NCBI GenBank assembly: GCA_951406725.2
Contig: OX597822.1
Location: 117,676,001 to 117,740,000 of the forward strand
Reading direction: 5' to 3'
DNA length: 64,000 nucleotides
Source of the DNA: Octopus vulgaris
Lineage: Eukaryota
Under the pieces are notes generated by a model. The model worked only from the letters and a program-made list of their open reading frames with translations. It had not been told where the DNA came from and searched no databases. A program made the position numbers and the translations under genes. Positions 8,400 through 52,330 of the stretch are shown here, one piece after another; position 1 is the stretch's first letter, and each line of letters opens with the position of its first letter.

Positions 8400-9600
8400 T
8401 GTTGTTGTCGACCGATTTCGCTTTCGCTAATCATGACATTGAAATTATTATAATATCGTGTTCTCTTAAGAATATTTTAGTCCATGTTGTGTGTAAAGTT
8501 TGAGAATGAATGATTCAACAACTAGAAGAACGTAAGGGGAGGTAATTTCTCATCCTTCTGGGAGGGGATGAATAAATATACACAAAAGCTCAAAAGCTAA
8601 AGTAGTGAGATGAAATATGTACAGTGATGGGTATGATATCGTGAATTAAAATATATACTGAGATCAAAGTTGGTTATGGGTTCATATTTAGACGTGTTCT
8701 GTATTTTTCGAAGAACAAATTTTCTTTATATAAACGTTCTTGTATAGATATAGATTCTTTGCACTGGTAGATGGGGAGCACTGTCAAGTTTGGTTGGATA
8801 TTACCTGCACATCTCTCTATGTGTTCATTCAAGAGAATCTGTCTGTATTGCGGGAACCAGATCTGTTCCGTGAGTAGTGTAGTTCTCCGTCTCAGTGTCA
8901 TACTTGTCTGACCTATATAATGTCCACAACGTGAACAAGTCATAACATAAATTAGATTCTCGGACACACAAGTGAACGTGGTTTTAATTGTGAACCTCTC
9001 TCCTTATTTGAATAGGAATTCCGTGCCTTCTAGTAGGTTGGGGCGTGTTCCATGTTTGAGCGTACACATTTTTAACCGTTCGTTTCGTGGTGGTTGGTGT
9101 GTAAAACTTCGCATTTGTTAGAAGTCTTTTTAGCGATGTGTGTTGCTTTTTGCATTTGATGAATTCATGCACTTTCAGAATGTTGTTCATTTTTGGGTCT
9201 CTATTTAGTAAAGGGAGTTTTTTTTTACAATAGTGTTGTATGCCTCATTGTTTCTAGGGTTGTGAGTTGATATATACAGTAGTGTTTTGAGATGAGTTGT
9301 GGTGTTACGTATTGTCGCCCTTAGTGCTTTAACGTCTAATTTCTAACCACACTTAATTCCATCGTCTGTAGGCGAAGGTGGATATTGTCTTTCAGTTAGT
9401 GTTGTCTTGAGGTTTGAACGATGAAGGGCCCGAGTATCTCTATCAGGCACTATTGTGTATTCTATCAGAGGCTATTATGCATTCTATCAGACACCTTTTA
9501 CTAAATTAAAGGGGGTATTTCTTTTGATGTGTTTTTGGCGACAAAAGCTAAACGGGAGTTATTGCTTCAAGTCTGTTGGTTTATGATAAATGTCAGTTAT
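8400..9600 (-). mobile_element. Penelope-like element remnant (RT C-terminus, GIY-YIG, pLTR)
   Basis: NLIYVMTCSRCGHYIGQT is a GIY-YIG motif with Cys pair. Upstream SLKRLL linker. A hammerhead-like motif lies downstream at 8406-8438. Confidence 0.85.
8406..8438 (-). ncRNA. Minimal hammerhead-like ribozyme, A3-U8 core
   Basis: UGUC AUGAUUA GC-GAAA-GC GAAA UCGG UC^ GACA. Confidence 0.65.
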
Positions 9601-9664
9601 AATTTGGTTGTTGACCTTTTATATACATGTATATATATATATATATATATATATATATATATAT

Positions 9665-10029
9665 AGGCGCAGGAGTGGCTGTGTGGGTTCAGTCCCACTG
9701 CGCGGCATCTTGGGCAAGTGTCTTCTGCTATAGCCCTGGCCGACCAATGCCCTGTGAGTGGATTTGGTAGACGAAAACTGAAAGAAGCCTGTCGTATATA
9801 TGTATATGTGTGTGTGTGTGTTTGTGTGTCTGTGTTTGTCCCCCTAGCATTGCTTGACAACTGATGCTGGTGTGTTTACGTCCCCGTCACTTAGCGGTTC
9901 GGCAAAAGAGACCGATAGAATAAGTACTGGGCTTACAAAGAATAAGTCCTGGGGTCGATTTGCTCGACTAAAGGCGGTGCTCCAGCATGGCCGCAGTCAA
10001 ATGACTGAAACAAATAAAAGAGTAAAAGA
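9665..10029 (+). mobile_element. SINE family A (head deletion), within (TA)n
   Basis: Matches the other copies. Confidence 0.9.
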
Positions 10030-11699
10030 ATATATATATATATATATATATATATATATATATATATATATATATATATATACACATATACCAATATATG
10101 TATTACGTACATACATACGTATGTATATTTACATATATATATATCTTAAAAAGGTTAATTTGTTAAAGAAGGGGAGTTTAGATAAACGATATATGCTATT
10201 CCAATAGATTACGTAGAATACAATCTTTATCTAAACTTAACCACTTTTCTCTTCCTCGAGACTCCGGATTCACCTCATTGCGATCATTAGATGAACCGTT
10301 AATTTTGCTATTGTTCCAGCTTGTTTTATAGACAATGGAACATTAGTTCATTCCTTAGTGTATTGATATCATTTTCAGTGGATGGATTTTCGATGTTGTT
10401 CAAAGCGTTGCCACTAATTATCGTCGCCTTTCCTTTGCCAATTAGTGAATTATAGTTGCTTTTTAGTTCATGCGTAATTTCCTGTTATCGTTTTCAATTA
10501 TCCCAATCTTAAAGAATAGCTGCAAGCTAAGTTCAACATAACGACATATAAGCAAAAACTTAACGACGTAAGACCAAATTCTCAGAATAAAATCCGTTTG
10601 ACGTAGGATAAACGACAGTTAACGTCAACGCTGAGAACCCAGTTTATCAGAAGTTTCTAAACGTAAGCTTATCCCCCAAGTACCTGTGTCATTTAGGAAT
10701 TGTTAGAGCTCTTTAGCTATATTTCTCTTGTTATATTGCTTACTTTGTTGCTAATGTTAGTTGTATATTTGCAGAATACTCTAAATATGAAATATATAGC
10801 AAAAAAGAAAAAAAAAAAACCCGCAAAAGTCTTTATAATATTATTGATATCAAATATAGAATCTCTGTTTCAAGATGGGACAATGGCCGTTCATGCCGTA
10901 AAGACAAGAATTGGTAGGCTGTAAACAACAAAAACATGCAGAAAATGGGGACAGAAAATAAGGATCGGGTGCATTAATGTGTCAATCAAAATATGTATCA
11001 TATTTAAGGCACACCTCCACACACAAACACAAATATGTATTAAATAGAACTTCAGTTAGGGATGATTTCCGTAACATTGTATATGTACATACATACGTAT
11101 GTATGTAAGTATGTATGTATGTACGTATGTATGTATGTATATATGTATATATGTATGTGTGTGTATGCATGTATGTATGTATGTATGTATGTATGTATGT
11201 ATGTATGTATGTATGTATGTATGTATGTAAGTATGTATGCATGTATGCATGTGTGTATGTATGTATTATATGTCTGTGTATGTTTGCGTATATGTATTAA
11301 TCTATCTATCTATCTATCTATCTATCTATCTATCTATCTATCTATCTAACTATCTGTCTGTCTGTCTGTCTATCTCTCTCTCTCTCTCTCTCTCTCTATA
11401 TATATATATATATATATATATGGCTATGGTCTGGTAGGGTGTGACGTTATAGTATTTCCAGAGAAGCACTCGACCCAAATACTGGTCTATTAATACTGTC
11501 GGGTCCCAGGCCAAAGCCAAAATTCGTCAGGTGTAGAAAATCCAAGATTCACGACGATTATATCGTCAAATGGGTTTCGCGAAGAGAAGAGAATCCAATG
11601 AAAGGAAGCAGAAACCGAAAATTCTTTAACACTTCCTTGTCATTTTCTTTTAATTGGATATATATATATATATATATATACATATATATGTATGTATGT

Positions 11700-50206: not shown

Positions 50207-51755
50207 GTACATCAACATCGAAGAAGATGATATCACACTAGCCATTGATGAGATTGACACAAACTCAGCTGCTGGACCTGATGGATTCCCAGCGATCCTT
50301 CTCAAATCGTGCAAACGAGCCCTTGCAAAACCGCTACAGCTTCTTTTTCAGAGCTTTCTTGCAAGTGGTAAGCTCCCAGTCAAACTGAAAGAGGGAGTAA
50401 TATGCCCTATCCATAAGGGAGGTAGCAGAGCAGATGCTAAAAATTATAGGCCTATCTCTCTGACCTCACACATCAGCAAAGTCATGGAACGAATAGTCCG
50501 TAAGAAACTAATCATGTTCCTTGAAGAAAATGACTTACTGTCTGACACCCAGCATGGATTTCGACCAGGTAGAGGCTGCCTAACACAGCTCCTGCAACAC
50601 TATGACTGGGTGTTGAAACAGCTACTAAATGGCTCAAATGTGGATGTAATATATCTCGACTTTGCAAAAGCCTTTGATAAAGTCGACCATGGTATGATCT
50701 GTCACAAACTGCGTGGTCTCGGCATAGGCGGGAAACTTGGAGAGTGGCTGCACAACTTTCTAAAAGACAGAAAACAGGCAGTTGTGAGCAATGGAGCCAC
50801 CTCCAAGGAAACGCAAATAACAAGCGGTGTCCCACAGGGCACTGTCTTGGGGCCACTGATGTTCATAGTGACCCTTTCAGACATGCCTTCAGTTGCTACG
50901 ATGACCACCCTTGCTAGCTATGCAGATGACACAAAAGTCTCCCACGCAATACAAAACACTGAAAATATTGCGCATCTGCAACATGAGCTGGACACAATAT
51001 ACAGGTGGGCTGAGGACAACAACATGCAGTTTAATGCAGGTAAGTTCCAGGCCCTGCGCTACTGGCACACAAAGGTAAATGACGTGAAGACTGGATACAC
51101 TGGCCCAGGAAGAATTGCAATCCCTGAGTCAAAATCAGTGCGTGACATGAGCAATGATGCATCTTTCCAAATGCATATTGCTAATCTGGTGATAAAATGC
51201 AGACGGCTAGCTGGATGGATTCTCCGAACTTTCAGAACAAGAGAGAAGGAGACACTGATGGTCCTATGGAAAACATTCGTCCTCAGCCGCTTGGACTACT
51301 GCTCCCAACTTTGGTCACCACACAATATAAAACAAACAGCAGAACTCGAAGCAACTCAGAGAAGCTACACAAAGAAAATCGTCTCAATGCAAAATGTCAG
51401 CTACTGGGAAAGACTGAAGGTATTAAACCTCTTCTCCCTGGAGCGGAGGCGGGAGAGATATGCAGTGATATACATCTGGAAAATCCTGGAGGGTCTTGTC
51501 CCAAACTTTGGCATTCAAAGTTACTCCAACCGCAGAACGGGGCGCCGCTGCGTGGTGCCAAGGATTCCAACATCACCATTAAAATACAGGTCCAGATACT
51601 GCAACAGCTTGGGTTTCAGAGGACCACAGCTCTTTAACATCCTCCCTAAATGCCTGAGAGACTTACATCGTGTGGATGTGGATTTCTTTAAAACTAAACT
51701 GGATCTCTTCTTGTTGGGAGTCCCAGATGAACCTACCTCACGACAGGAGACATGA
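50193..51755 (+). CDS. LINE ORF2 reverse transcriptase domain and C-terminus
   Basis: AAGPDGF, NYRPISLTS, QHGFR, YLDFAKAFDKVDH, SGVPQGTVLGP, YADD, LDYCSQLWSP, SLERRRER. Confidence 0.95.
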   Translation: MTKIEYINIEEDDITLAIDEIDTNSAAGPDGFPAILLKSCKRALAKPLQLLFQSFLASGKLPVKLKEGVICPIHKGGSRADAKNYRPISLTSHISKVMERIVRKKLIMFLEENDLLSDTQHGFRPGRGCLTQLLQHYDWVLKQLLNGSNVDVIYLDFAKAFDKVDHGMICHKLRGLGIGGKLGEWLHNFLKDRKQAVVSNGATSKETQITSGVPQGTVLGPLMFIVTLSDMPSVATMTTLASYADDTKVSHAIQNTENIAHLQHELDTIYRWAEDNNMQFNAGKFQALRYWHTKVNDVKTGYTGPGRIAIPESKSVRDMSNDASFQMHIANLVIKCRRLAGWILRTFRTREKETLMVLWKTFVLSRLDYCSQLWSPHNIKQTAELEATQRSYTKKIVSMQNVSYWERLKVLNLFSLERRRERYAVIYIWKILEGLVPNFGIQSYSNRRTGRRCVVPRIPTSPLKYRSRYCNSLGFRGPQLFNILPKCLRDLHRVDVDFFKTKLDLFLLGVPDEPTSRQET

Positions 51756-52114
51756 ATGCGGGCAGCAGCATCGAACTCCCTTGTTGATCAAGTGCCACGT
51801 ATCAGAGGAGGATTCACAAACTAGTGTAGCTCATTCAGCGGTGGTGCCCCAGCATGGCCGCGGCCTTCGGGCTAAAACATTTTTATGGATTAAGGATTTA
51901 AGGATATATATATATATATATATATATATATATATATATATATATATATATATATATATATATATATATATATATATATATATATATATATATATATATA
52001 TATTATATGTAGAAAAATACAAACTGGGACAAGAACGTAAAACATTTAGAAGACGATACAAAAAACACGGACGGGACTATCTCTAATTTAATTTATATAT
52101 ATATATATACATAT

Positions 52115-52330
52115 ATATAATGGGAAGGTTTACGAAAATAAACAAAAGACGAAGGCAGGTGGAGTACAAACAAACAATTGTATTAGTATGGCGCTCAGGA
52201 ATAGAAATAGAACAAGTCTTTTACGTTTCGAGCCTACGCCTTCAACAGAAAGATACACAGAAAAAAACAAGGAGAGAAACATGGAGAGAAAAAAATGCGT
52301 GTAGGAGCTAACGACCTATCATGGCGTCCT
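52115..52330 (-). mobile_element. PLE pLTR-like repeat, second copy
   Basis: Closely similar to 11700-11965. Confidence 0.7.
52217..52253 (-). ncRNA. Minimal hammerhead-like ribozyme, CUGUUGA core (copy 2)
   Basis: UCUUU CUGUUGA A GGC-GUAG-GCUC GAAA CG UA^ AAAGA. Confidence 0.6.

Follow-up and report, generated by a model that had tools for sequence, protein, structure and literature searches.

Variant 3-8 pairs in minimal hammerhead-like motifs, probably of Penelope-like elements, in a 64-kb window of Octopus vulgaris DNA

The 64,000-nucleotide stretch of Octopus vulgaris DNA considered here (contig OX597822.1, positions 117,676,001 to 117,740,000, hereafter the window) contains broken remnants of Penelope-like elements (PLEs) and a set of short, dispersed sequences with the layout of minimal type I hammerhead ribozymes, among which nucleotides 3 and 8 of the core are found in each of the four Watson-Crick combinations. 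Judging from assembled contigs of public sequencing runs, one highly repeated Neptune-like family has fixed A3-U8 at this place; by sequence comparison, another family carries U3-A8, in two window copies and in relatives from outside, and a third probably carries G3-C8, found in one core. The reading that we favour, with a probability of about 0.7, is that the transcripts of these elements would be cleaved, with the assistance of dimerization or of a protein, by cores that keep the 3-8 pair.

All nine core 7-mers that an earlier note on this DNA had named are present where it placed them, provided that its 24379 is read as A9 of the minus-strand core starting at 24385, and its 'about 13000' as 13002; sites are cited below by such core coordinates. 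The claim that all four 3-8 pairs occur stands as far as hammerhead-shaped sequence is concerned, but not as ten intact motifs. Five sites, namely 8434 (A-U), 24385 and 26231 (U-A), 19697 (G-C) and 43551 (C-G), combine the two core boxes with a paired 3-8 position and with both helices, I and II, in which the junction shows one mismatch at the most. At these five the boxes N3-U4-G5-A6-N7-N8-A9 and G12-A13-A14-A15.1...U16.1-H17 are complete, the literal CUGANGA consensus (C3 with G8) being absent from the A3-U8, U3-A8 and G3-C8 sites. The boxes are incomplete at 11871, 52248 and 32024 (U6) and at 13002 (G13), so that the statement that U4, G5, A6, A9 and GAAA are intact was mistaken for three of the nine sites (U6 at 11871 and 52248, GGAA at 13002). 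A Watson-Crick 3-8 pair is present at all sites retained, and at the level of the family for 8434. Helices I and II are complete at 8434 and 11871, and there is one junction mismatch at 19697, 24385, 26231 and 43551. The loop III palindrome is perfect at 19697, 11871, 52248, 32024 and 13002 and in the majority of the 8434 family, and has a central mismatch at 43551.

The A3-U8 family and its Neptune-like element

In the 8434 motif (table 1), stem I is formed by 8438-8435 and 8409-8406 (4 bp), stem II is GC-GAAA-GC (8427-8420), and the second box GAAA (8419-8416) is followed by loop III (8415-8412, UCGG in the window copy), U16.1 (8411) and C17 (8410), with the cut predicted between 8410 and 8409. 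The motif begins 240 nt past the endonuclease open reading frame (ORF) of the adjoining PLE remnant, in the range of 67-387 nt found in the six relatives described below. This ORF (8674-9003, minus strand) corresponds to GIY-YIG, at a Pfam E-value (6e-4) that falls short of the curated cut-off. Word-based protein searches with the endonuclease gave no match, whereas a full HMMER search returned 475 homologues at E <=0.001, including proteins of approximately 745 residues with both a reverse transcriptase (RT) and a GIY-YIG domain (RVT_1 + GIY-YIG). A profile built from 24 long homologues matches 8680-9639 at profile positions 416-722 of 723, in order, and GIY-YIG lies C-terminal to the RT; the remnant was also matched by tblastn. 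The zinc-finger-like CX2-5CxxC linker is present in the closest homologues and degenerate in the window copy. By domain layout and profile the element is classed as Neptune-like, i.e. as a PLE of the Neptune/Nematis type.

Twenty of the 24 public sequencing runs listed contain part of 8350-9600, under five organism labels, and no RNA run is among those listed with it. The state of the family was determined from contigs of four runs (X1, X5, X6 and X10; four labels and four studies) aligned to 8345-8760 with at least 80% likeness, which amounted to 920-1720 contigs per run; the tallies therefore rest on assembled contigs, not on reads, and the per-position changes are those listed, complemented by tallies for each kind of change. 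The summed depth over the motif, approximately 20,000 in X1 versus 14-23 for single long contigs, marks the family as highly repeated, this depth not being a copy number. Among the changes listed only one falls in 8405-8449, namely 8415 A>G, which accounts for 97-98% of the depth in all four runs and turns loop III, with A15.1 and U16.1, into the palindrome ACCGGU. G8 is below 5% in X5, where no A>C place exists at all; X1, X6 and X10 have one such place each, at an unlisted position. C3 is below 5% in X5, X6 and X10, as all six T>G places are listed at other positions, with a seventh, of unlisted position, in X1. G3, G6 and G9 are each below 5% in X5 and X10, where both T>C places lie elsewhere. 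Two loose-end consensi (agreement 0.68 and 0.88) show C7 together with A3-U8, and A7 together with U8, respectively. Taken on these tallies, A3-U8 is the state of the family and not the decay of one copy; the earlier note had allowed that family consensi might turn out to be canonical, and for this family the contigs of the four runs contradict that possibility.

A (TA)n tract, the likely insertion target, lies shortly past the predicted cut (table 1). In the AT-rich tail that leads from the motif to it (8345-8400) a second depth peak, at 8359-8386, is seen in all four runs, and suggests a conserved 3' end of the element. A pattern scan for the A3-U8 family in metagenome contigs, a collection not expected to hold the source animal, found none.

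The U3-A8 pair and Neptune relatives from outside

The motifs at 24385 and 26231 differ from each other only at N7 and at one letter of stem II. Both have a stem I of 7 bp with two G.U pairs, U.U at 10.1-11.1, six (or five) stem II pairs, GAAA and UC, and they lie in the two arms of an inverted repeat, with their 3' ends outward (table 1). Inverted, truncated, back-to-back copies are described as typical of PLE insertions (PMC8557442, available text), and U.U at 10.1-11.1, also seen in two of the six relatives, is on record in natural hammerheads (PMC3088659, available text).

Outside relatives were obtained by scanning metagenome contigs with an endonuclease alignment, which led to 12 loci: six with a hammerhead 67-387 nt past the match, two that end within 72 nt of the ORF and four that carry no motif. 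Related-locus scans of viral and genome contigs gave no relative. In the six motif-bearing loci (L045, L048, L050, L052, L053 and L056) 3-8 is paired without exception, as C3-G8 in four and U3-A8 in two; neither A3-U8 nor G3-C8 occurs among them. The two U3-A8 relatives carry UUGACAA and UUGAAAA, i.e. the very 7-mers of 24385 and 26231. All six have palindromes of 4-8 nt, and in none is a base bulged out between 9 and 10.1. Since the bulge is also missing at 8434, 24385 and 26231, while it is present, with G10.1-C11.1, at 11871, 52248 and 19697, it looks clade-dependent.

A model (R1) was trained on five of the outside relatives with 3-8 treated as a pair, L052 being left out because it was misaligned; its E-values are roughly calibrated. 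In the five sequences 10 of the 11 modelled pairs, 3-8 included, show changes on both sides (none of 500 shuffles scored as high), with the reservation that the structure was drawn from the same five sequences, which favours it. The model ranks 26231 and 24385 first in the window (E-values in table 1) and recovers the motif of the left-out L052 at E 0.013. U3-A8 is thus supported, as sequence, by an independent model and by relatives, and the two window motifs are, on this comparison, real homologues of Neptune hammerheads, possibly inactive ones. L052 also holds a second hammerhead-like motif (1959-2017, minus strand; C3-G8, model E 0.005) in opposite orientation, approximately 150 nt downstream of its U3-A8 motif.

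The G3-C8 candidate

The core at 19697 is followed by an extra G, a stem II in which one pair close to the base is mismatched, GAAA, the palindrome AUAU and UU; stem I has U.U at the junction and then 6 bp. A class expectation of 0.005 per shuffled window was found for such a motif at a score of at least 11. The partial inverted copy at 19648-19677 has a 3' arm, GCGAC, that pairs fully with the forward 5' arm GUCGC, and on this ground the mismatch in stem II of 19697 looks like decay. That G3-C8 is a real variant of a family, resting on this one core, is in our judgement somewhat better than an even bet. Further copies of the motif were not found in genome and viral contigs, which are not expected to hold the source animal.

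Canonical, U6 and decayed sites

At 43551 an A.C at 10.1-11.1 precedes a stem II of 10 pairs, stem I has one mismatch, and the motif sits in an insert of approximately 310 nt between two (TA)n tracts. The two U6 copies, 11871 and 52248, have good stems, the CG palindrome and different H17 letters, and a (TA)n tract follows each of them at a distance of 100-135 nt. In the lowest-energy fold of this family the first box pairs with loop III, and A6C, a natural variant at the same position, has low activity (PMC3088659, available text); the ribozymes of the U6 family may be of little activity or none. Reading 11871 in another register, with U3.G8, was rejected, as stems I and II then fail to abut the core. 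The family was not found by a pattern scan of viral contigs, again a collection not expected to include the source animal. A further U6 candidate, 32024, had escaped the earlier note; it is a single copy, unrelated in sequence to the 11871 family, and U6 may have arisen more than once.

Table 1. Hammerhead-like motifs and associated features in the window.
Feature	Position	Strand	Details
(TA)n tract, likely insertion target	8297-8343		66 nt past predicted cut of 8434
A3-U8 minimal type I hammerhead, predicted	8406-8438	minus	core AUGAUUA, 8434-8428
Neptune-like PLE remnant	8674-9639	minus	5'-truncated, frame-broken; RT thumb, degenerate linker, C-terminal GIY-YIG
U6 hammerhead-like motif CUGUUGA (C3-G8)	11839-11876	minus	bulged A, 4-bp stem II, CG palindrome, 5-bp stem I
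Decayed canonical hammerhead CUGAAGA	12964-13005	minus	GGAA for GAAA, broken stem II; downstream of PLE remnant; model R1 E 3.5
Second PLE remnant, broken	13436-14033	minus	RT thumb + GIY-YIG; no linker cysteine cluster seen
Partial inverted copy of 19697 motif	19648-19677	minus	begins inside stem II; first core box missing
Candidate G3-C8 minimal hammerhead GUGAACA	19690-19740	plus	score 13
Back-to-back inverted repeat with both U3-A8 motifs	24301-26316		24301-25085 vs 25549-26316; 3' ends outward; no ORF remnant found
U3-A8 hammerhead UUGACAA, second inverted copy	24345-24392	minus	model R1 35.8 bits, E 4.7e-6
U3-A8 minimal hammerhead UUGAAAA	26224-26271	plus	loop III CCUG; model R1 36.2 bits, E 3.8e-6; descriptor score 12
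Extra candidate CUGUAGA (C3-G8, U6)	31984-32031	minus	palindrome CUCGAG; 60 nt before (TA)n
Decayed canonical C3-G8 hammerhead CUGACGA	43546-43605	plus	long stem II, 9-nt palindromic loop III
Second U6-family copy CUGUUGA	52217-52253	minus	element 84% identical; one stem II deletion, H17 = A

The decayed 13002 motif lies 3' of a second PLE remnant, which, by the definition in PMC8557442 (available text), is Penelope/Poseidon-like in sequence because it has no cysteine cluster in the linker. With 8434, it gives direct support to the link with PLEs made in the earlier note, as ORF remnants adjoin both motifs and both lie 3' of them, as expected of a pseudo-LTR (long terminal repeat); the other sites have no such neighbour, and the window holds no complete element with two pseudo-LTRs. 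A third RT fragment of PLE type, at 14231-14680 (minus strand) and on to approximately 14030, abuts the Poseidon-like remnant at 14033 and has no match to the Neptune-like profile; its motifs may be Naiad-like.

The CUGACGA at 32871 (plus strand) was rejected. It has both boxes, as the earlier note had seen, but neither a stem I nor a stem II beside GAAA, and it is absent from the descriptor scans. It lies in the centre of an element of approximately 450 nt (32621-33076) with long inverted arms (32621-32744 and 32950-33076).

Chance expectation and visibility to existing searches

A loose descriptor gave three Watson-Crick matches versus 0.95 in 40 local dinucleotide shuffles (2 of 40 as high). 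With a descriptor demanding a palindromic loop III, written after the sites and relatives had been seen, and a score of at least 11 with A6 only, three paired and no mismatched matches were obtained versus 0.02 and 0.09 in 200 shuffles, none of which was as high; by allowing U6 and a score of at least 7 the counts were seven paired and one mismatched versus 0.78 and 1.84. Mismatches at 3/8 are thus less common than pairs; equal frequencies, which the earlier note had named as an outcome that would speak against its proposal, are not what is seen. The seven paired matches represent five independent elements, to be compared with a single mismatched match, which takes a (TA)n tract as its loop, and with a background of 28% paired 7-mers. 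The 8434 motif is not counted because the window copy closes loop III with U.G. As genomes hold more palindromes than shuffled sequence does, decoy cores were run on the real window as well: 5 of 287 reached three paired matches, all by means of a CATA box supplied by microsatellites. The loosest descriptor yielded 79 matches, 32 of them paired, versus 59 and 16 in 40 shuffles; this enrichment was not used, the list containing duplicate copies, overlapping registers and microsatellite-derived cores. A tract of (TA)4 or longer lies within 150 nt downstream of 6 of 10 window sites and 4 of 6 relatives, versus 14.6% of 4605 random positions.

Among viral contigs, cores with the 2-bp stem II of 8434 were found at 44 loci, 34 of them distinct: 9 C-G, 2 A-U, 1 U-A, no G-C and 22 mismatched. 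On inspection neither A-U core made a convincing hammerhead. In eight of these contigs (L003, L004, L015, L017, L019, L028, L029 and L037), at approximately position 151-168, UGAUGA or GAGUA precedes GC-GAAA-GC-GAAA between paired flanks; their 3-8 letters are mismatched, and they look like internal-loop motifs, not hammerheads.

The descriptor of PMC4209133 (available text), re-implemented, finds no site in the window with CUGANGA, with UUGANAA or with 3/8 left free, and by freeing position 6 it finds the two U6 copies only. The Rfam scan of the whole window returned microRNA matches driven by microsatellites, with no hammerhead among the 150 of 284 matches listed, and the hammerhead families (clan CL00010) gave no match at E <=10 in 8360-8500 or 19640-19780. 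Since only one of the six Neptune relatives is matched, and weakly (E 8.5), Rfam does not see this layout. That neither the published descriptor nor Rfam finds any of the sites in the window amounts to a blind spot. The expectation that CUGANGA-based searches miss such variants is borne out to this extent, although part of the failure is due to the descriptor, which forbids mismatches and loops III longer than 2 nt.

Proposed mechanism and alternative explanations

The motifs would be the 3' pseudo-LTR ends of several PLE families, for the most part decayed and truncated at the 5' end, with a minimal type I hammerhead as the last feature of each. Alone, a motif would have no stable helix III; two of them, in tandem pseudo-LTRs of one transcript or in two RNAs, would pair their palindromic loops III and swap the strands of stem I, perhaps with the aid of the element's protein, and the dimer would form two active sites, each cutting after H17. 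The active fold would join nucleotides 3 and 8 in a Watson-Crick pair, with G8 acting via its 2'-OH, and the identity of the bases would be free to change as long as the pair is kept. All four pairs are said, from the work of Przybilski and Hammann in 2007, to function in engineered hammerheads. The available texts of previous reports are in line with several of these steps: as monomers the PLE minimal hammerheads were inactive, and their activity in the dimer was low (PMC4209133); the role of G8 is ascribed to its 2'-OH (PMC6155905); and the PLE hammerhead of Anolis required the element's protein, was abolished by C3G and by G8C and was partly rescued in vitro by the G3-C8 double mutant (PMC11167929). 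By holding the core open, a dimer of 8434 with stems I and II and an intermolecular helix III of 6 bp was calculated at -11.3 kcal/mol. Together the families would cleave, selection having kept the 3-8 pair, and the path between the states could have been C-G, U.G, U-A, a mismatch, A-U, G.U and G-C. The stronger version, in which one animal genome holds separate, highly repeated PLE families with working hammerheads fixed for each Watson-Crick 3-8 pair, and perhaps for a U6 form, seems rather doubtful. In the same vein, the 'large ribozyme population' of the earlier note is borne out for one family, as sequence. Its proposal that A-U, U-A and G-C are compensatory changes fares differently for each pair: A3-U8 is a family state, U3-A8 has the backing of the model and relatives and was already published, and G3-C8 is a single core.

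A number of results weigh against the favoured reading. None of nine monomer folds is better than shuffles (z -1.3 to +1.3), and competing folds are lower in energy at most sites. For 8434 a rival fold, in which loop III takes up the first box, reaches -18.5 kcal/mol; it uses the copy-specific U at 8415, and may for that reason be weaker in the majority of the family. At 26231 the core is hidden in a more stable, competing hairpin (dimer, -29.5 versus -10.5 kcal/mol with the core open), and here, as at 24385, the loop III CCUG is an imperfect palindrome that affords four of six dimer pairs. No ORF remnant was found by tblastn and profile search beside 19697, 24385/26231, 43551, 11871, 52248 or 32024, and no (TA)n tract lies within 500 nt downstream of 19697. 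Model R1 gives E 0.61 for 8434, 0.17 for 19697, which is not significant alone, and 9.5 for 11871; it misses 43551, 32024 and 52248 and ranks 36844 and 2754 above 19697 and 8434. The matches at 36844 and 2754 were themselves rejected, having no second box or palindrome (no GAAA/palindrome layout). The strict descriptor gave two matches versus a mean of 1.15 in the 40 shuffles (12 of 40 as high), which is not significant, and the palindrome descriptor suffers from its late origin. The A3-U8 tallies are also compatible with a minority of copies with U3-A8 (U3, A8) or C8, since the listing covers only some of the T>A, A>T and A>G places. Finally, PLE insertion in vitro did not require hammerhead cleavage (PMC11167929, available text).

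The last point leads to the main rival reading, which we consider unlikely, that the motifs descend from PLE hammerheads but that the variant cores no longer work: cleavage would have been lost in a founder copy and the family amplified anyway, with the 3-8 match due to chance or to an RNA fold that has no catalytic role and is recognized by the element's protein. The core mutants of the Anolis element left insertion in vitro unaffected, no cut ends were seen in RNA-seq (PMC11167929, available text), and Naiad PLEs spread without canonical hammerheads (PMC8557442, available text). The U6 family fits such a history, by taking into account the change at a conserved position common to both copies, the fold that engages its first box and the low activity of A6C. 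For A3-U8 the same history has to accommodate two transversions, from C-G to A-U, that land on a pair, and the preservation of U4, G5, A6, A9, GAAA, the palindrome and both stems while position 7 varies; furthermore, paired cores recur in independent elements and in all six motif-bearing relatives. Because 3 and 8 pair only in the active fold, and by considering the two transversions and the free position 7, the family-wide A-U pair argues for an active fold under selection. It appears very improbable that every variant core results from the decay of single copies in canonical CUGANGA families. Decay does account for 13002 (GGAA) and for the stems of 43551, most copies are visibly decayed and 32024 is a single copy; as an explanation it is excluded for 8434 by the contig tallies, and the variant is common to both U3-A8 copies and to both U6 copies.

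The G3-C8 site could be a chance match in the inverted repeats of a small DNA transposon, with palindromes that are DNA-binding sites instead of RNA helices, an origin that is a substantial, if the lesser, possibility for 19697 and a less likely one for the U3-A8 pair. The 19697 motif is part of a 30-nt inverted repeat, and 24385/26231 of a 2-kb one, with no PLE ORF nearby; the modest E-value from the model, three junction or stem mismatches and the failure to find a further copy in genome or viral contigs point in the same direction. Set against this are the low class expectation in shuffled windows, the rarity with which decoy cores score so high and the repair of stem II by the inverted partial copy. 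In addition, the arms diverge after approximately 30 nt, where one of them continues into a tail, a pattern that differs from terminal repeats, which are equally long; and the U3-A8 pair stands at E 4e-6 with an independent model.

Relation to known hammerheads and significance

The PLE minimal hammerheads of PMC4209133 (available text) share with the present motifs the type I topology, the absence of a stable helix III, the palindromic 15.2-16.2/loop 3, the position 3' of a GIY-YIG ORF, the U-rich 5' and AU-rich 3' flanks and a mostly dispersed, single-copy distribution. U3-A8 is an accepted variant there, with approximately 1,300 hits in Schistosoma mansoni. Among the 56 representatives of its figure S3 there are two with U3-A8 and one with U3.G8, and none with A3-U8, G3-C8 or U6; the 8434 motif differs by its 2-bp stem II, the missing bulge after A9 and the 4-nt loop III. 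Perreault et al. 2011 (PMC3088659), in the available text, found U3-A8 covariation, 2-bp stems II, U10.1.U11.1 and A6C all in nature; the only alternative 3-8 pair given there is U3-A8, rare, mostly microbial and not fixed in a high-copy animal family. U3-A8 is therefore already published, for microbial hammerheads and for Schistosoma PLEs. The Anolis Poseidon element PAc (PMC11167929, available text) likewise has a PLE hammerhead, with C3-G8, in which engineered G3-C8 partly restores cleavage; it differs in that G3-C8 was engineered, the natural motif being canonical, and it belongs to another PLE clade. Closest are the Neptune PLEs (PMC8557442, available text) and the six relatives, with their C-terminal GIY-YIG, the cysteine linker in homologues and the (TA)n targets; the relatives also have a bulge-free hammerhead and a palindrome of 4-8 nt shortly past the ORF, but with C3-G8 (four) or U3-A8 (two). 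Non-LTR retrozymes (PMC7229834; bioRxiv 10.64898/2026.07.22.740005; available texts) are type I, dimer-type, PLE-tied repeats of animals as well. They form tandem units of 170-400 nt, whereas the window motifs are dispersed or back to back, and none of the sites lies in a tandem array.

No natural A3-U8 or G3-C8 was found in full-text literature searches, though the alignments of Luense 2017, Hammann 2012 and Przybilski 2007, or supplements, could contain them; a motif search in the available part of the PMC8557442 supplement produced a single match, which was unrelated. In chemical terms there is no novelty, since swaps of the 3-8 pair are known to be accepted in vitro and U3-A8 to occur naturally. 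Natural variant families do offer direct test material for the 3-8 pair, and the A3-U8 family bears on the debated question of whether the hammerhead is useful to PLEs, in which it may only ride along (PMC8557442, available text). If all four pairs were fixed, transversion swaps at a tertiary pair of the active site would show selection on cleavage, and the published counts of PLE hammerheads, reports of absence included, would miss whole families.

Other features of the window

The window has 37% G+C and is rich in microsatellites and SINE-like (short interspersed element) repeats. A pair of ORFs of LINE type (long interspersed element) at 49172-51755 (plus strand; Pfam endonuclease and RVT_1) encodes a nearly whole endonuclease/RT interrupted by a frame break; another 3' fragment of this type lies at 45819-46367 (minus strand). 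A SINE-like repeat forms head-to-tail units of approximately 185 nt at 28558-28973, 53045-53590, 54424-55040, 60762-61000 and other places.

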